Shown here: piece by piece, positions 24,130-30,677 of the stretch | Numbering within the stretch: position 1 is the stretch's first letter | Layout of the letters: each line of letters starts with the position of its first letter | Assembly: GCF_000018105.1 (NCBI RefSeq) | Contig: NC_009925.1 | Coordinates: 4,290,001 to 4,322,000, forward strand | Source of the DNA: Acaryochloris marina MBIC11017 | GTDB taxonomy: Bacteria > Cyanobacteriota > Cyanobacteriia > Thermosynechococcales > Thermosynechococcaceae | DNA: 32,000 nt | Direction: 5' to 3' | Translations under genes and position numbers: made by a program | The notes under the pieces: model-generated | Seen by the model: the letters and a program-made list of their open reading frames with translations, nothing else | The model's database searches: none | Told to the model about the DNA's origin: nothing

Positions 24130-27100
24130 CTAAATATAATGATCACAGGCTTGCATAGCTTCTATGACAATATCCTCACCTTTGGTTGGCTGCTTGAATA
24201 TGGAATGATAGTACAGTTGATGGCAAGCAGTTGACAGTAAAGATTTCAAATCAGAAATATTCCAGATACGGACGCTTTTGTCATCACTACTGCTGATGAT
24301 GCGCTGGCCATCAAGACTAAAAGCTACTGACATAACTGAAGACTCATGTCCTTTCAGTGGTTTGCCGATAAGGTCACCAGTTTTGGCATCCCAAAGTCGA
24401 ATAGTTTTGTCCCAACTGCCGCTGACAATGCGTTGACTGTCAGGACTAAATGCCACTGACATGATAGATAACTCATGTCCTCTTAACGGCTTGCCTATAG
24501 GGTCACCGGTTTTAGCATCCCAAAATCGTATGGTTCTATCTCCACTACTGCTGACAATGCGTTGACTGTCAGGACTAAATGCCACTGACATGACAGGCAA
24601 CTTATGCCCTCTTAATGGCTTGCCTACAGGGTCACCGGTTTTAGCATCCCAAAGTCGTAAGGTTTTGTCACCACTGCCGCTAACGATGTGTTGGCCATCA
24701 GGACTAAATGTCACTGTTCTGACCAAAGACTTATGGCCTTTTAACGGCTTGCCTACAGGGTCACCGGTTTTGGCATTCCAAAGTCGGACGGTGTTGTCAT
24801 TACTGCCGCTAGCGATGTGTTGGCCATCAGGACTAAATGCTACTGACATGACAGCTGATTCATGTCCTTTCAACGGCTTGCCAATGATTTCACCGGTTTT
24901 AGCATCCCAGACTCGTATGGTTTTGTCCCAACTGCCACTAGCGATGTGTTGGCCATCAGGACTAAATGCTACTGACCTGACAAAATCTTCATGTCCTTTC
25001 AACGGCTTGCCAATGATTTCACCGGTTTTGGCATCCCAGACTCGTATGGTTTTATCCCTACTGCCGCTAGCGATGTGTTGGCCATCAGGACTAAATGCTA
25101 CTGACCTGACAAAATCTTCATGTCCTTTCAACGGTTTACTGATAGAGCTACCAGTCTCTGTGTCCCAGAGTCGCACGGTTTTGTCATAACTGCCACTGAC
25201 GATGTGCTGGCCATCAGGACTAAATGCTACTGACATAACAGTATCTTCATGTCCTTTAAATGGTTTGCCGATCGGGTCACCGGTTTTAGCATCCCAAAGT
25301 CGCATGGTTTTGTCACTACTGTTGCTGGCGATGAGCTGGCCATCAGGACTAAATGCCACTGATTCGACCACAGACTTGTGTCCTTTCAATGGTTTACCGA
25401 TTGGGGCACCGGTTTTAGCATCCCAAAGTCGCACGGTTTTGTCATAACTGCCACTGACAATGTGCTGACCATCAGGACTAAATGCTACTGACATGACATA
25501 GGACTTATGTCCTTTCAATGGTTTGCCGATCAGGTCACCAGTCTTAGCATTCCAAATTTGTACAGTATTGTCACCACTGCCACTGACAATGTGCTGACCA
25601 TCAGGACTAAATGCTACTGACATGACAGAAGATTTATGGATAAACTGATTGCGCTCCCTGTTAGCAAGAACCGCAGTCAGTAAGCTATCGTCTACAAAAT
25701 CGAACTGTGGACGGTCGGGAAATTGAACAAACGCTGACTGGCTTAATCTCTTTGCAGCAATGGCATTAATTATTGCTTGCACAGGTTGGCTCTCAGCTAA
25801 AGCTTTAGAGTTTGTCGCCAATTGCTTTACTCGTTGCCGCTGGGCGCTTTGCGTCTGAAACAACGCAAAAATGGCAGTACCTGCCATCAATACCGAACCA
25901 ATAGATGCACCAATAGCGATACTTCTGGCTCGCTTTAATTCTCGCTTTTGAAAGCGGAGACTAGCATTTATATATTTGTTCTCATCTGCGCTGAGGGTAA
26001 GAGATTGTAATTCAAAACGATTGGAACTACGGAGCTCAATGACCTTCTCTAGGAAAGAACCCTTTAGTAATTCTTCATTCGATTGACATGTTTCATTCCA
26101 ACGCCCTAAATCCTCAACTAAACGAGATTTTATCAACAGAGTTTCCTTAGTTTCATCAATCCAACCTTCCAGCATTTTCCACGAACTCAACAGAATCTCA
26201 TGGGCAATCTCAATTGTTGCTTGTTGTGCAGAAGAGTTTTTGGTCTCTTGCTTTGGTAAGCCTGATAGGTTCAAGCACTCGCTATTGCTGACCAACAAAT
26301 TCTCATTGATGAGCCGATCAATCGTTGCTTGTACAGTAGCTCCATAGAATTTGGATCTAGCCATACTTTGGCTAACAGGCTTGCTTACACCATCTGTTTC
26401 AATAAGTTTAACTAGACTTAAGAAAATCTGCTTAACTGCTTGTTGTCCATCCGTACCAAGTTCTTCATAGATCTTGTTGACATGTTTTTCCAAGGTACCT
26501 CTCACCTTGCCAAGAGCTCGGTAATTCTGAGTATTTAGAATTCGATCATTCAGTTCATCATGTTCGAATTCGTACTTCCACAGTTGATCCAAGGTATATT
26601 GCATCAAAGGCAAAGCTCCCGCTTGTCCTTGAACATCGTGAATGATTTCTCTAACCAGCTTCGGTTCAAATCGCACTCCATGCTTCGCGGCTGGACCCTT
26701 AATTGCCAGCTCTAGTTCATCTTCTGGCATATCAGTGACGAGGTAAATTTCCTGTTGCACAGCCTTGCCAAATTGAGCATATGGGCTGAACTGTTCTAGA
26801 AAATCAGCCCGCATTGCCAACATAATCTTGAGCGAGCAATCCTTAGAGTCAGCAATTTTAGTAATACTATTTATAAAATTCTTTCGCTGTTGCAAGTTTG
26901 TACAACGAGTAAATAGTTCCTCAAATTGATCAATGAAGACTAACCACTCAGTATTTTGTTCTTTAAGGCGGTAGGCTATTTGTGAGAAAACATTGGATTT
27001 TTCCTTTAAAATAAATTCAGTTTGTGACTCATCGAAGCGATAATCTTTATCCAATCCAGTCTTATCTCTACCAATTAAACTTGTATAAAGTGACTGAAAA

Positions 27101-27477
27101 GGATTCTTCCCAGGTGTCAGAACAAAACCATGATGATTGGAACTAGTACTTAAGAACTCAGGAATAATCTTTGCTCGTACTACCGATGATTTACCACTAC
27201 CAGAAGCTCCAAGAACCAAAACCAAATTCTTGGTCTTAAGTGCTACTTGCAATGCCTGTGCAAGCTGATAGCGACCAAAAAAGTACTCAACATCGTCAAC
27301 ATCAAAACGTTTTAGCGCTTTATAGGGTGACCTTGCTTGGAATGAATTTAGTTTAATCGTCTCCGGTGTAATTAAGAGCTGTTGCTCAATATAGGTAGAC
27401 CCAATAACATTTTGGCCAATATTTCCCTTAGCACCCTGGCCAATATCAATCTTTCTAGGAGAGCTGTCATTAACCAT
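24130..27477 (-). CDS. NLR-like STAND P-loop NTPase with an N-terminal G/N/Q-rich motif, one TM helix and 11 WD40 repeats
   Basis: RBS gagagg, ATG at 27477 (the track TTG start at 27516 is less likely). N-terminus MVNDSSPRKIDIGQGAKGNIGQNVIGS. Then SPYKALKRFDVDDVEYFFGR, Walker A GASGSGKSS (27183..27210) and Walker B LVFIDQFEELF. TM helix IAIGASIGSVLMAGTAIFALF, followed by 11 WD40 units of 43 aa. Confidence 0.9.
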   Translation of the reverse strand: MVNDSSPRKIDIGQGAKGNIGQNVIGSTYIEQQLLITPETIKLNSFQARSPYKALKRFDVDDVEYFFGRYQLAQALQVALKTKNLVLVLGASGSGKSSVVRAKIIPEFLSTSSNHHGFVLTPGKNPFQSLYTSLIGRDKTGLDKDYRFDESQTEFILKEKSNVFSQIAYRLKEQNTEWLVFIDQFEELFTRCTNLQQRKNFINSITKIADSKDCSLKIMLAMRADFLEQFSPYAQFGKAVQQEIYLVTDMPEDELELAIKGPAAKHGVRFEPKLVREIIHDVQGQAGALPLMQYTLDQLWKYEFEHDELNDRILNTQNYRALGKVRGTLEKHVNKIYEELGTDGQQAVKQIFLSLVKLIETDGVSKPVSQSMARSKFYGATVQATIDRLINENLLVSNSECLNLSGLPKQETKNSSAQQATIEIAHEILLSSWKMLEGWIDETKETLLIKSRLVEDLGRWNETCQSNEELLKGSFLEKVIELRSSNRFELQSLTLSADENKYINASLRFQKRELKRARSIAIGASIGSVLMAGTAIFALFQTQSAQRQRVKQLATNSKALAESQPVQAIINAIAAKRLSQSAFVQFPDRPQFDFVDDSLLTAVLANRERNQFIHKSSVMSVAFSPDGQHIVSGSGDNTVQIWNAKTGDLIGKPLKGHKSYVMSVAFSPDGQHIVSGSYDKTVRLWDAKTGAPIGKPLKGHKSVVESVAFSPDGQLIASNSSDKTMRLWDAKTGDPIGKPFKGHEDTVMSVAFSPDGQHIVSGSYDKTVRLWDTETGSSISKPLKGHEDFVRSVAFSPDGQHIASGSRDKTIRVWDAKTGEIIGKPLKGHEDFVRSVAFSPDGQHIASGSWDKTIRVWDAKTGEIIGKPLKGHESAVMSVAFSPDGQHIASGSNDNTVRLWNAKTGDPVGKPLKGHKSLVRTVTFSPDGQHIVSGSGDKTLRLWDAKTGDPVGKPLRGHKLPVMSVAFSPDSQRIVSSSGDRTIRFWDAKTGDPIGKPLRGHELSIMSVAFSPDSQRIVSGSWDKTIRLWDAKTGDLIGKPLKGHESSVMSVAFSLDGQRIISSSDDKSVRIWNISDLKSLLSTACHQLYYHSIFKQPTKGEDIVIEAMQACDHYI
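24220..25638 (-). repeat. Tandem array of 11 coding repeats of 129 nt (WD40 blades)
   Basis: Unit consensus is HxxxVxSVAFSPDGQHIVSGSxDKTVRLWDAKTGxxIGKPLKG. Units 5 and 6 (24994..25122 and 24865..24993) differ at 4 of 129 nt by my reading. Confidence 0.9.
27410..27446. repeat. Left copy of a 37-nt perfect inverted repeat (codes for the STAND N-terminal motif)
   Basis: ttttggccaatatttcccttagcaccctggccaatat is the exact reverse complement of 27973..28009. Confidence 0.9.
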
Positions 27478-27677
27478 GTTTACCTCTCGAACATTCCTGA
27501 AGAGGAGTGACTCCAAATTATTCTCAATTAATTATCTGTAGAATGAACAAAAAATATGCAAAGAAATTCATTCCTTCGAATAAAGAACAGAATAGTGGAG
27601 TAATCTTATAAATATTTCTGTAAAAGTGCTTCCCCTCTTGACTATTCACTAACTCAATCTATTAGGAGTTTAAAATT

Positions 27678-28043
27678 ATGGATCCTATGATGCTTATTTT
27701 GACAGCTCTGGTTACTGGGGCTGCTAAAGTCGCAGGTGATGCTGCACCTGATGCTTACAAGGGATTAAAAGCACTTATTCAAAAGAAGGTTGTGGGGAAA
27801 CCAGAAGCAGAAATGGCATTAGCGAAATATGAAGAAAAACCGGATGTCTGGGAAGAACCTCTAAAGGATGCACTAGCTGAGTCGGGTATTGATAAAGACG
27901 AAGAAATTCTCAAGGCTGCACAGGAGTTGTTAGAACAGCTGCAGCCTGGAAAAACAGTGTCTGGGACTATCAATATTGGCCAGGGTGCTAAGGGAAATAT
28001 TGGCCAAAACGTCATAGGATCAAAGATTGGAATAATCAAGTAG
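27678..28043 (+). CDS. Small helical protein (Bell/HeLo-like candidate) ending in the motif shared with the STAND NTPase
   Basis: RBS aggag, ATG at 27678, 121 aa. It has a hydrophobic N-terminal helix (MDPMMLILTALVTGAAKVAG), a charged helical middle, and the C-terminus TINIGQGAKGNIGQNVIGSKIGIIK. Confidence 0.75.
   Translation: MDPMMLILTALVTGAAKVAGDAAPDAYKGLKALIQKKVVGKPEAEMALAKYEEKPDVWEEPLKDALAESGIDKDEEILKAAQELLEQLQPGKTVSGTINIGQGAKGNIGQNVIGSKIGIIK
27973..28009. repeat. Right copy of the 37-nt perfect inverted repeat (codes for the small-protein C-terminal motif)
   Basis: atattggccagggtgctaagggaaatattggccaaaa. It is in the same codon phase as the left copy. Confidence 0.9.
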
Positions 28044-28223
28044 TGTCATAACTTATTGCGAGATGTCGGAAGTTTGGGGGAAACTCGACATAATTTACAC
28101 CACTGAATATGAATCCACAGATCTAGGGCTATTTCCAGTTCACCAGAGGTAACTCAAAAACATTAGCAATTCATGAGATAGCAATCATGTTATGGAAAGT
28201 CTGGGTACACAAGAATCTTGGTT

Positions 28224-28647
28224 TCAGATTTTCTTGCAAAAACTTGAAATAGCCTTGCCCACGAAACACTGCATTAGATTGAGCAGGTAAAGATTGACCT
28301 TATAAATTTCCCACTCATCCCCCTCTGCATCGGTGACCCAGGCTTTGTCTTACAGGGCATAGTAGCAAGTAGTTTGATTGTCTGAACAGACTGGTAGGCT
28401 TAGCTTTGCTAAGCCTACCTCTTTCTTTTGCAACCTGCTCCTATGACTCCACTTCAATGCCCACGTGGTTTAACTTGCTGGTGGCTGTGGAGTTTTCGAA
28501 TAACACCAGTTTGAGTGGCGGGTTTGCGATCGCAAAGTTGGTATACCCAGGTCGACGCTTGGCCGGTTCAGTGGCAAATAGTTTGCTGTAAAAACGAGTA
28601 GCCGCTTCCAGGTCTTTGACATTAAGGGCGAGTTGGATGCGAGACAT
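28224..28647 (-). pseudogene. ArsI/CadI-family (VOC/glyoxalase fold) gene, decayed
   Basis: The N-terminal 68 codons MSRIQLALNVKDLEAATRFYSKLFATEPAKRRPGYTNFAIANPPLKLVLFEN...LNHVGIEVES match the CadI/ArsI family and end at a TAG (28441-43). The homologous C-terminal part continues in another frame (TTCYYAL*DKAWVTDAEGDEWEIYKV) with an in-frame TAA at 28350-52. Confidence 0.75.
28393..28419. repeat. Perfect 12-bp-arm palindrome inside the pseudogene
   Basis: ggtaggcttagc ttt gctaagcctacc, followed on the plus strand by tctttcttttg. It lies within the interval (about 28370-28415) where the pseudogene changes frame. Confidence 0.6.
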
Positions 28648-28742
28648 TGTTTGATCTCCAGCGCTAACTTTTTGATGGCTTCACTCCTATAGACGAGACC
28701 CTTCCGTCAAAGACGCATCCGTTCCCTGGATAGACCGCTTCA

Positions 28743-29603
28743 TCACTTTTTCTTGCGTTTTTTGTTCTTGGGTTTCACAGCCCCAAACCCCGTCGTTTTC
28801 TTTCCTGACTTTTTCCGGTTCTGGGATAAAGCACCTTTGCTAAAGTCGGGTAATTTGCTCTGTTCCCGTGCCAACTCAGTGGTCATATTTGCCAATCGAC
28901 GGATTTGCTCCATCCACTCTGGTTCCTGATGCTGAAGTTCTTCTGGAGAAAAGTCTGCTTCTGTTGCCAGTCCTAGCGCAATCTGCACTCTTGCCCAGCT
29001 GCCACAGAACATTTCGTCCATTGGGCCTTCCTTGTAAGCCCGTTCAATTACACTGACGGCTCCAGTCGCTTTTAAGTTGATTAACTCGACAACTAAACTT
29101 GCATTCGTCTCCGCTGCTTGTTCCTTATGACGAGCTAGCGCTGTCGTTAATTCATCAATGCATTCTTGGCGATAATCAGGGTTTAGTTGAGCAATTTTGG
29201 TGAGTCCTGAAGCGGCCGTAGAGATCCCTAGCCAAGGACGTTCCCCCTCAGCTAGATAACCCGAGAGTATGGGAATACAGGTTGGGCCTATTTTTCCCAA
29301 GATCGTGGGCAACTCTTCTCTTAAAAAGTCATACTCACTATCAAAGAAAGCCAACAGTGCTTGAATCGCTTTCTCTGTTTTGAGTTGACCTAATGCACGA
29401 CAAGCATGCATGGGGGAATAGCCCTCTCCCTCATCATCCCAGTTCAAGTCTTCTTCAGCAGCGAGCCGGCTGAGTTCAGGGATATGAGCTTCTGTAAATC
29501 CAAAGTTTTGGAGATAATCAATAGCCTCGGGGCTATTTAAATCTTCTGGATATCCTAGAGTGAGGAGTTGGGCTACAGGATCTTGGTACGCAGGGATAGG
29601 CAT
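28743..29603 (-). CDS. DUF1186-like protein with a Lys-rich C-terminal tail
   Basis: 286 aa. The stretch HIPELSRLAAEEDLNWDDEGEGYSPMHACRALGQLKTEKAIQALL...EELPTILGKIGPTCIPILSGYL resembles DUF1186 proteins from memory. The tail is KPKNKKRKKK. Confidence 0.6.
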   Translation of the reverse strand: MPIPAYQDPVAQLLTLGYPEDLNSPEAIDYLQNFGFTEAHIPELSRLAAEEDLNWDDEGEGYSPMHACRALGQLKTEKAIQALLAFFDSEYDFLREELPTILGKIGPTCIPILSGYLAEGERPWLGISTAASGLTKIAQLNPDYRQECIDELTTALARHKEQAAETNASLVVELINLKATGAVSVIERAYKEGPMDEMFCGSWARVQIALGLATEADFSPEELQHQEPEWMEQIRRLANMTTELAREQSKLPDFSKGALSQNRKKSGKKTTGFGAVKPKNKKRKKK

Positions 29604-29676: not shown

Positions 29677-30177
29677 TCAACAAAGTGTGGGATAGGAAGC
29701 TAAGTCTTGCCATCTCCAAGGACGCTCCGTCAATCCAGCTCGTTGGGCAGCCGTGTTCTTGAATCGAGAGTGGCACCAAATCCAGTTGAAATAGCTCAGC
29801 ACCAATCTTAAAGTCATCGCACTCTGTTGCCAGACTTTGCCAAACTTATTCTGTCGTCGATGCCAACGCCCGGTCTGCTGACGCACGATGCCATTGGTCC
29901 GCTCTAAGCGTTGGGTCAGGGCTTTACTCACTTCATGGACGACCTCATCGGGTAATTGTCGTGCGTACCCTTCCCAACCATCCGTTTGCCAATGATGACA
30001 GGCGGTTTTGCCCTCAGTATTTTCAATCAATTCTTGAGCTAGCTCGTCGGTATGTTTGCCAATACGGCCACTGAGCACGAGACCACTCTCTTTCGCAAGA
30101 CTCAATGCTATCCAGCAGTCGCCTACCCTCAACTCCTTCGGCTCACAGTGCTTTTGCTTTTTTTGACAAAGGACCAC
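29677..30177 (-). CDS. insB: IS1-family InsB (DDE part), expressed as an InsAB fusion by a -1 frameshift
   Basis: An A7 run (30158..30164) lies in the overlap with insA. Motifs include CWIALS, WQTDGWEGY and TQRLERTNGIVRQQTGRWHRRQNKF. Confidence 0.85.
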   Translation of the reverse strand: MVLCQKKQKHCEPKELRVGDCWIALSLAKESGLVLSGRIGKHTDELAQELIENTEGKTACHHWQTDGWEGYARQLPDEVVHEVSKALTQRLERTNGIVRQQTGRWHRRQNKFGKVWQQSAMTLRLVLSYFNWIWCHSRFKNTAAQRAGLTERPWRWQDLASYPTLC

Positions 30178-30506
30178 AACTCATCTGCATTAATGACGTC
30201 GGTCGCAACGGCCTGAACTTCCCCATTGTGAATCATTTGGGATTTATGACTCGCTGAACGAACCACACTCACACAAGTGTTATACGCTACACCCGTGATG
30301 CGAGAGAGTCCTCGTAGACTACTCCCTTCAACATGAGCTTGAAGGATGGTCTGGATCGTTTCAGGAGAGATCTGACGGCGATAACACAGGGTGTCAAAGG
30401 TCTCACTAAAGGTCTGTTGACAGTGGGGGCAACGGTAACGTTGACTGCCTTTGCTGGTCTTGCCATGTTTGTGGGTTTTAGGATGACCACATAGAGGACA
30501 TTGCAT
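30129..30506 (-). CDS. insA: IS1-family InsA (zinc finger plus HTH)
   Basis: MQCPLCGHPKTHKHGKTSKGSQRYRCPHCQQTF..., ending after DELWSFVKKSK. ATG at 30506. Confidence 0.85.
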   Translation of the reverse strand: MQCPLCGHPKTHKHGKTSKGSQRYRCPHCQQTFSETFDTLCYRRQISPETIQTILQAHVEGSSLRGLSRITGVAYNTCVSVVRSASHKSQMIHNGEVQAVATDVINADELWSFVKKSKSTVSRRS

Positions 30507-30677
30507 GAGGAAATAAAACAACTCGACTCCCTATCGGTTTAACAAACCCACACTTCTTTGATGCACGACCCCAGTGCGACCTCATAAACATACCCTGATC
30601 TAGCCACGATCAAGGGGTGTTCCCCTGACACTGCTCGTTCCGAAAATTGTTATCCACTGTGTCATGCTTTTCCTTTT

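Follow-up and report, generated by a model that had tools for sequence, protein, structure and literature searches.

A candidate gene-conversion tract and an apparently mosaic receptor gene at the shared motif of a divergent NLR-Bell pair in Acaryochloris marina

Why do two divergently transcribed and otherwise unrelated neighbouring genes carry the same short peptide motif, and why is the core of that motif encoded by exactly the same DNA? The question is raised by a locus in the cyanobacterium Acaryochloris marina MBIC11017, the pair formed by AM1_4295, which encodes an NLR (NOD-like receptor), and AM1_4296, which encodes an effector. Both genes lie within a 32,000-nt stretch of contig NC_009925.1 (positions 4,290,001 to 4,322,000 of the forward strand), which is referred to here as the window and to whose first letter all positions refer. 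Taken jointly, the comparisons described below make it quite probable that the two genes form a Bell/BASS-type module under NLR control, and that this module bears a conversion tract and a mosaic NLR. The genes, the two motif copies and the arms of the repeat are as follows.

24130..27477, minus strand: NLR-type receptor AM1_4295, 1115 aa from the ATG at 27477 (Pfam nSTAND1 3e-103, WD40 1.4e-145)
27478..27677: divergent intergenic region of 200 bp, from the map of open reading frames (ORFs); homologous to the spacer between the NLR1 and Bell genes of a plasmid paralogue
27678..28043, plus strand: effector AM1_4296, 121 aa, with a Bell/HetE-N helical domain (residues 1-90; PF20701 on the identical protein) followed by a disordered, motif-bearing tail
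27397..27450, minus strand: NLR-side motif copy IDIGQGAKGNIGQNVIGS, AM1_4295 residues 10-27 (translation and codon table; aligned with the NLR N-termini of 17 related loci)
27969..28022, plus strand: effector-side motif copy INIGQGAKGNIGQNVIGS, AM1_4296 residues 98-115 (same C-terminal place in most of the 120 homologues listed)
27410..27446: first 37-nt arm (arm 1) of the perfect inverted repeat, the putative gene-conversion tract; exact reverse complement of arm 2
27973..28009: second 37-nt arm (arm 2) of the perfect inverted repeat; exact reverse complement of arm 1

The 18-residue motifs, one read from the reverse complement of 27397-27450 and the other from 27969-28022, are identical at 17 of 18 residues. 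An initial annotation made from the letters alone had reported 7 differences among the 54 nt and a perfect 37-nt inverted core, and recomputation from the window returned exactly these coordinates and counts. On the distal side, codons 14-18 (N V I G S) differ at third positions only, all five differences being synonymous (the split codons include N14 AAC/AAT, I16 ATA/ATT and S18 TCA/TCT), and on the proximal side codon 1 carries a synonymous change (ATT/ATC) and codon 2 a D/N replacement (GAT/AAT). The composition of the motif (G5 I4 N3 Q2 V1 A1 K1 S1, with P and L absent) fits the G/N/Q/V/I enrichment of BASS-type motifs. The 32-kb window holds no other long inverted repeat of high identity, this one extending to 49 nt at 92%. 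The chromosome of a second strain, MBIC10699 (L001), is identical to the window over 26000-29500, and the repeat is no assembly artefact, because that assembly is independent.

The AM1_4295 protein, an exact match to WP_049783760.1 / ABW29274.1, comprises in order a 9-aa leader, the 18-aa motif, an nSTAND1 STAND NTPase with the Walker A sequence GASGSGKSS at 27184-27210, a transmembrane (TM)-like segment and about 11 WD40 repeats. A GAGG Shine-Dalgarno-like sequence lies ahead of the start at ATG 27477, and homologues begin MVDDSS or MTDSS. AM1_4296 begins MDPMMLILTAL (MDPMMLILTALVTGAAK), with a hydrophobic helix 1 and an acidic residue 2, and its relatives begin MEPISLI. Its AlphaFold2 model has five helices within residues 3-88 at a predicted local distance difference test score (pLDDT) of about 85, and a tail, residues 91-121, at a pLDDT of about 43. 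The assignment to HetE-N is made through precomputed PF20701.5 matches (E <= 1e-5), which include the identical protein and 119 of the 120 homologues listed, and through homology to the proteins that have them. The NCBIfam scan gave no match for AM1_4296, and the PADLOC scan none for AM1_4296 and weak or repeat-driven matches only for AM1_4295. nSTAND1 and HetE-N are Pfam names from one accession block with families of the Aravind group, where they may have originated. The 200-bp spacer presumably holds the promoters of both genes; a consensus promoter scan of 27478..27677 found nothing convincing.

Pairs of Bell-domain effectors and NLRs that share a BASS (bacterial amyloid signalling sequence) motif have been described by Dyrka et al. 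2020 (bioRxiv 10.1101/2020.01.06.895854). The A. marina pair resembles them in its cyanobacterial host, in its helical effector, which is about 120 aa long and has a hydrophobic helix at the N-terminus, in a G/N/Q/I/V-rich motif of about 20 aa that stands at the effector C-terminus and again at the N-terminus of the adjacent STAND NTPase-WD40 protein, and in WD repeats with high internal identity. Effector domain, NLR architecture, shared motif of about 20 residues, linkage (200 bp, divergent) and composition thus all correspond to the Bell/BASS type. It differs in that its genes are divergent, where 91.3% of the published pairs are collinear, in that its NTPase is nSTAND1 instead of Pfam NACHT/NB-ARC, and in its motif, NIGQGAKGxIGQ, which falls outside the listed BASS1-10. 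That study describes neither a mosaic NLR nor a conversion tract in the DNA. Acaryochloris marina is unicellular, whereas the hosts of the published pairs are filamentous.

Homologues of AM1_4296 (n=213) are nearly all cyanobacterial, with a highly conserved helical domain and C-terminal motifs of several types. On the one conserved Bell/HetE-N domain at least five unrelated motif families are found (P0011-P0120), including a G-phi-Q-phi-G motif of BASS3/RHIM-like type in Nostoc, and it follows that the motif is swapped modularly on the effector. The window's motif is without the G-phi-Q-phi-G core of BASS3. The strings GQGAKG, IGQGA, GIIGQ, GAKG, IIGQ and Acaryochloris are absent, by string match, from the supplementary tables of Dyrka et al. 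2020, and the window's motif string was not found in the searchable literature. The family was probably missed by the published census since its receptors are nSTAND1 and not NACHT/NB-ARC. A search for closer orthologues of AM1_4295 returned none above 69% identity outside its own species.

Some relatives depart from the two-gene form. At locus L132 (1842-4489) the genes that come after a Bell protein of the family encode iSTAND and AAA proteins in place of nSTAND1-WD40, and the first downstream gene carries a degenerate motif copy, TSIGRRAQGIIGESV, at its N-terminus. At L042 (5928-8550, Nostoc sp. CHAB 5715) an in-frame fusion joins a Bell domain bearing an RHIM-like motif (GAQVGDRNTQ) to the WD40 repeats and the TM segment that normally follows the NTPase. 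This was considered as a motif-mediated Bell-WD40 fusion and rejected, the deletion having removed the NTPase and the join not lying at a second motif copy; the fusion is probably a decayed pair. In P0135, HetE-N is joined directly to nSTAND1 in an all-in-one protein without an amyloid motif, so that HetE-N and nSTAND1 exist in fused as well as in two-gene form.

By analogy with systems that have been tested, the WD40 repeats of the nSTAND1 NLR would sense a cue, upon which the NTPase would oligomerise and gather the N-terminal G/N/Q/I-rich motifs of 18-20 residues into a cross-beta nucleus. The nucleus would then template the matching motif in the disordered tail at the C-terminus of the Bell/HetE-N protein and free that protein's hydrophobic N-terminal helix for membrane attack, with abortive infection or regulated cell death as the outcome. 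At the level of the DNA, the two motif copies are old, inherited separately with their genes and held under purifying selection, and the 11-codon core (37 nt) was very probably overwritten lately by homologous, non-reciprocal recombination between the inverted copies; the motif DNA probably also provided a homology patch for the exchange of NLR bodies behind one signalling leader.

The identity of the core at the DNA level is far greater than the shared peptide predicts. With the codon usage of the window and independent choice of codons, the probability that all 11 core codons are identical is 1.9e-5, and a simulated exact run of at least 37 nt has a probability of about 1e-5 (5e-5 with a slightly different set of ORFs). 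The 6 synonymous differences are clustered outside the 11-codon run (P = 5.7e-4), and the five flank differences are all at third positions (P = 3.3e-4). That 5/5 distal codons differ has a probability of about 0.1 under independence, and the distal flank therefore looks like two unrelated codings of one peptide. The initial annotation had proposed to look for synonymous divergence (dS) depressed only in the 37-nt core, and this is what was found: dS is 0 in the core, the distal flank is saturated (it carries 5 synonymous differences over about 4 synonymous sites), and the edge between them is sharp.

Other motif copies provide a comparison. The loci compared were drawn from genomes (79), metagenomes (41) and exact look-up (13), and in about 60 of those gathered the Bell tail could be aligned with the start of the large STAND protein encoded next to it. 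Collinear order prevails in almost all of these pairs, the divergent ones being the A. marina pairs only, and 18 non-redundant pairs have the motif family of the window (NIGQGAKG-x-IGQ). The nearest comparison is the plasmid paralogue pair on AP026078.1 of MBIC10699 (L005), whose effector is 84% identical to AM1_4296; dS between the chromosomal and plasmid Bell paralogues is 0.8-0.9. Its motif copies match at 6 of 15-16 codons for identical residues (20- or 23-residue alignment), with a longest run of 10 nt. In 55 other pairs the codon is shared at 354 of 709 identical residues (50%), and the longest run in the first set is 22 nt. Exact runs in the 18 same-family pairs average 16.3 between partners against 9.2 between non-partners (permutation p ~5e-5). 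The runs of 37 in the window and 33 at L008 exceed all 306 non-partner comparisons (maximum 26 nt), and the window motif shares at most 12 nt with any foreign copy. When each locus is judged by its own codon usage, the runs of 8 of the 17 other pairs fall below p = 0.05 (Fisher 1e-10).

With a core dS of 0, a sharp edge and a plasmid pair that is without such a run, the recent gene conversion suggested in the initial annotation holds up as the best reading: the 37-nt core would be a short tract copied recently and non-reciprocally between the inverted motif copies. A segment belonging to a dispersed repeat would have undercut this, and none appeared, there being no further copy of the 37-mer in the window and, among plasmids, only the known paralogue being related. 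DNA encoding IGQGAKGNIGQN, whether exact or degenerate, had 0 matches in 185,579 species genomes, a collection evidently without this A. marina genome. It is unlikely that the NLR gained its motif by de novo duplication, the NLR-side flanks being homologous to NLR-side flanks elsewhere. The NLR-side 'QGAKG' is Bell-like yet present in several NLR-side copies, and so does not point to one donor copy.

Substitutions in the two copies had been predicted to co-vary, and in the 18 same-family pairs they do, partner identity averaging 15.06/20 against 13.61 +/- 0.27 when partners are permuted (p ~5e-5). At position 10 (N/I/V) the partners agree in 18/18 pairs, where 11.3 agreements would be expected, and the same tendency is seen at position 14 (12 matches, 7.8 expected), position 16 (7, 4.1 expected) and position 18 (13, 9.2 expected). 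The matched rare residue V10 is coded differently by the two partners (GTA/GTG in L131, GTG/GTT in L134), as are N14, I16 and S18 in the window, so that such matches are not simply very recent conversions; they reflect either selection for compatibility or an older conversion followed by synonymous drift. The selection for peptide identity that the initial annotation had invoked survives in part: partners co-vary and are under purifying selection, but strict identity is not selected, partner motifs being identical at 9-18 of 20 positions, and the requirement is therefore one of compatibility. The identity of the flanks appears to be largely the result of family-wide purifying selection on two separately inherited lineages, although older conversion with synonymous drift cannot be separated here from parallel selection for flank identity.

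Comparison with relatives indicates that the states outside the core are inherited and side-specific and are not new mutations. K-I-D precedes IGQ in both A. marina NLRs and x-N in both effectors, and position 19 is T in both NLRs and K in both effectors. The tract groups by locus and its flanks by gene lineage, which is the phylogenetic incongruence expected of conversion. The same comparison extends beyond the motif to a cassette that is shared with the plasmid locus.

27400..28106: cassette comprising NLR-side motif, leader, spacer, Bell gene and about 60 nt beyond; blastn 75.9% over 713 nt to L005 5724-6428 (AP026078.1)

Homology to the plasmid locus ends at 27400, inside the motif, and the affinities of the receptor gene change there. 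The NLR leader and ID codons are identical at 32 of 42 nt to the leaders of NLR1 (the plasmid type) and at 9-23 of 42 to those of the other type. The NLR-side core matches its own Bell copy at 33/33 nt, as against 24-28/33 for every other motif copy. The distal motif and the next 25 codons agree at 48-57 of 75 nt with five co-aligned collinear-type NLRs (L139_NLR2 48; L136 52; L128, L012 and L129 54-57) and at 24-26 of 75 with NLR1; the 21/75 of L134 comes solely from an out-of-register alignment, and its NTPase is 66.7% identical. The AM1_4295 NTPase as a whole has 61-67% amino acid identity to the collinear-type NLRs, L134 included, against 26-30% to the NLR1 type. To judge from these alignments, the 5′ end of AM1_4295 is a three-part mosaic of an NLR1-type leader, a core like that of its own Bell gene, and a distal motif and body from the other lineage. 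This mosaic, with its junction in the motif, is new relative to the initial annotation. NLR bodies have thus been exchanged with the junction in the motif, which means that the motif DNA served as a recombination joint, or homology patch.

A related cluster is found at L139 (Logan SRR12447957, 1-5238), where one Bell gene lies between two motif-bearing NLRs, the divergent one being an NLR1 and the collinear one of the window type; the N-terminus of the divergent NLR is identical to that of the MBIC10699 plasmid NLR. One effector may serve two receptors there.

Several points weigh against the reading of the locus as a Bell/BASS-type module with a recent conversion tract. A scan with the Pfam-A profile PF20701.3 gave no match for AM1_4296, its relatives scoring 15-16 bits against a cut-off of 25. 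A Foldseek search of the PDB with the Bell model found nothing significant (best E = 3.4) and revealed no structural link to HeLo, MLKL or Bab. The partner is nSTAND1, whereas BASS pairs were defined with NACHT/NB-ARC families, and the motif is best treated as a further, unnamed BASS-like family outside the listed BASS1-10. Amyloid formation, templating and toxicity at this locus are supposed from tested systems. With regard to the tract, runs of 19-26 nt are also found between non-partner motifs, across genomes, and only the longest runs are safe evidence of conversion because runs of about 20 nt occur between genomes as well. The 18 pairs of the co-variation test are not phylogenetically independent, and co-variation could have come about through repeated older conversions instead of selection for matching. 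MBIC10699, the only second strain, is identical at the tract and so provides neither date nor direction for the conversion.

The alternative that survives best, though we consider it unlikely, is that the core is the footprint of the one event, a crossover or an inversion, by which the chimeric NLR arose, with no separate later conversion; an ancestor with the layout NLR1(-)/Bell(+)/NLR2(+) is one candidate setting. The junction between NLR1-type leader and other-type body does lie inside the motif, and L139 places a Bell gene between a divergent and a collinear motif-bearing NLR; from such a cluster, we infer, an inversion by recombination between the inverted NLR-side copies (m1 x m2) would yield exactly the arrangement of the window. 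A crossover between two NLR genes would not by itself make the core equal to the Bell copy, however, and its reciprocal product (leader 2, motif and NLR1 body downstream of the Bell gene) is absent, with no remnant detectable. The cassette is also about 24% diverged from its plasmid relative, so that the exchange is probably older than a tract with 0 differences.

It is much less probable that the inverted repeat is a cis-acting element, either an invertible switch between the two-gene form and a Bell-motif-NLR fusion or a regulatory stem. Inversion between the arms in silico does give an in-frame Bell-motif-NLR fusion of 1203 aa and a 33-aa stub, both promoters would ride on the invertible segment, and all-in-one HetE-N-nSTAND1 proteins such as P0135 exist. 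RecA-type recombination requires a minimum of about 25 bp, which the 37 bp exceed. Yet no invertase or recombinase gene adjoins the locus, fusion and stub are both absent by exact look-up among about 15 billion proteins, both assemblies have the one orientation, and P0135, the known all-in-one form, is without the motif. Almost all related pairs are collinear, so that their motif copies are direct repeats, and the arms of the window lie on different, divergent transcripts, which makes an RNA stem impossible.

Least credible of all is that no DNA was transferred and that the core is identical just because the same peptide is written in the same preferred codons: favoured codons exist (ATT 0.61, AAT 0.67) and runs of 19-26 nt join even motif copies of different genomes, but G and A codons are nearly unbiased (P(same) 0.25-0.27), the 11-codon and 37-nt probabilities given above are minute, the plasmid pair has the same codon usage and shares few codons, all five flank codons differ, and the exact 33-37-nt coding is not universal in Acaryochloris copies (L005, L139).

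The locus has counterparts among known systems. In Podospora anserina, HET-S and NWD2 (PMC3321046, PMC4344463, PMC4518210) are likewise an adjacent, divergent effector and NLR, and the NLR N-terminus likewise has one copy of the effector's C-terminal amyloid motif. The motifs and effector domains are unrelated in sequence (HeLo versus Bell/HetE-N), and HET-S has two pseudo-repeats. Fungal effector and NLR motifs are closer within a cluster than between orthologues, which has been termed co-evolution or concerted evolution (PMC3321046, PMC4518210); these papers argue at the protein level, and 'gene conversion' is not a term in the text of theirs that was searched. In E. coli, experiments on the Bab/Agp pair (BASS11; Ibarlosa et al. 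2024, bioRxiv 10.1101/2024.11.07.622273) have shown amyloid templating from sensor to effector that ends in the death of the infected cell. That pair also consists of a small Bell-related effector and an adjacent sensor with a common amyloid motif of 20 residues, on which analogy templating may be supposed in A. marina, but it has another motif family and a shorter 'Babybell' domain. Bab/Agp acts in abortive infection, whereas the Acaryochloris pair has no known phage link and sits among housekeeping genes. Effector-associated domains (EADs; Kaur, Burroughs, Iyer and Aravind; PMC7159879, PMC8195603) similarly place one adaptor on the N-terminus of an NTPase and on a neighbouring effector in cyanobacterial conflict systems; EADs are folded homotypic domains, whereas the element shared in A. 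marina is a peptide of some 20 residues that has no folded structure.

At the DNA level a parallel exists in an inverted gene pair. The inverted tufA and tufB genes of Salmonella undergo RecA-dependent gene conversion and evolve in concert. Like these, the A. marina copies would have been homogenised non-reciprocally in inverted orientation, leaving a sharp-edged tract of identity in diverged DNA. Unlike them, the substrate is just about 54 nt within two otherwise unrelated genes, and the tract is very short.

Three further features complete the locus.

24259..25719, minus strand: tandem 129-nt WD40 units of the sensor domain, at least 10 copies, 63-80% identical
25858..25920, minus strand: hydrophobic TM-like segment IAIGASIGSVLMAGTAIFALF, NLR residues 520-540, at the NTPase/WD40 boundary, read from the sequence
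28058..28108: imperfect hairpin element of about 35-50 bp (GGGATGTCGGAAGTTTG.G.GAAAC.CGACATA) at the right cassette edge, 3′ of the Bell gene; copies at L005 1808-1858 and 6380-6428

The WD40 array of the MBIC10699 orthologue is longer than that of AM1_4295 by 129 aa, or three units, a variation in repeat number of the kind found in fungal and bacterial NLR sensor domains. A hydrophobic segment comparable to IAIGASIGSVLMAGTAIFALF is present in the relative L042. On AP026078.1 the hairpin element stands on both sides of the NLR-Bell pair, one copy being at the start of a tyrosine-recombinase gene, and the element is also found at recombinase genes of three further Acaryochloris plasmids. As RNA it folds no better than shuffled sequence (z = +1.4); its role may be that of a recombinase site or of a cassette boundary.

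The neighbouring genes are housekeeping genes (PGI, a sensor kinase, an ABC transporter) and do not form a defence island. At 1.6 kb from the pair, two minus-strand ORFs (29677-30177 and 30129-30521) overlap, and their MBIC10699 counterpart has a DDE_Tnp_IS1 Pfam match; we take the split of 29677-30521 into two frames to suggest an IS1-type frameshift. Between the Bell gene and a convergent 68-aa ORF lies a strong terminator-like hairpin (28393-28419; 12-bp stem and T tract), which may act bidirectionally.

For the family, the locus contributes a clear pair of the Bell/BASS type from a unicellular cyanobacterium, with a motif outside the published BASS1-10 lists, and an unlisted motif family implies that the published BASS census is incomplete. 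It also offers DNA-level evidence of a route to the 'co-evolution' of effector and receptor motifs that has been noted in fungi, namely short conversion tracts on top of purifying selection. The mosaic receptor indicates that the motif can be a breakpoint for the exchange of sensor modules, which bears on the diversification of NLR repertoires. Conversion tract and mosaic receptor are modest new details and do not overturn current understanding. More speculatively, and as a proposal that we hold to be rather doubtful, motif DNA may be a portable homology patch that keeps partners matched by conversion, swaps the bodies of sensor NLRs and could flip inverted pairs into a fused gene, because it is the sole stretch common to effector and receptor genes and to different receptor lineages. 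If this were true in general, motif-mediated recombination would shuffle receptors and effectors in the NLR immune loci of bacteria and fungi.

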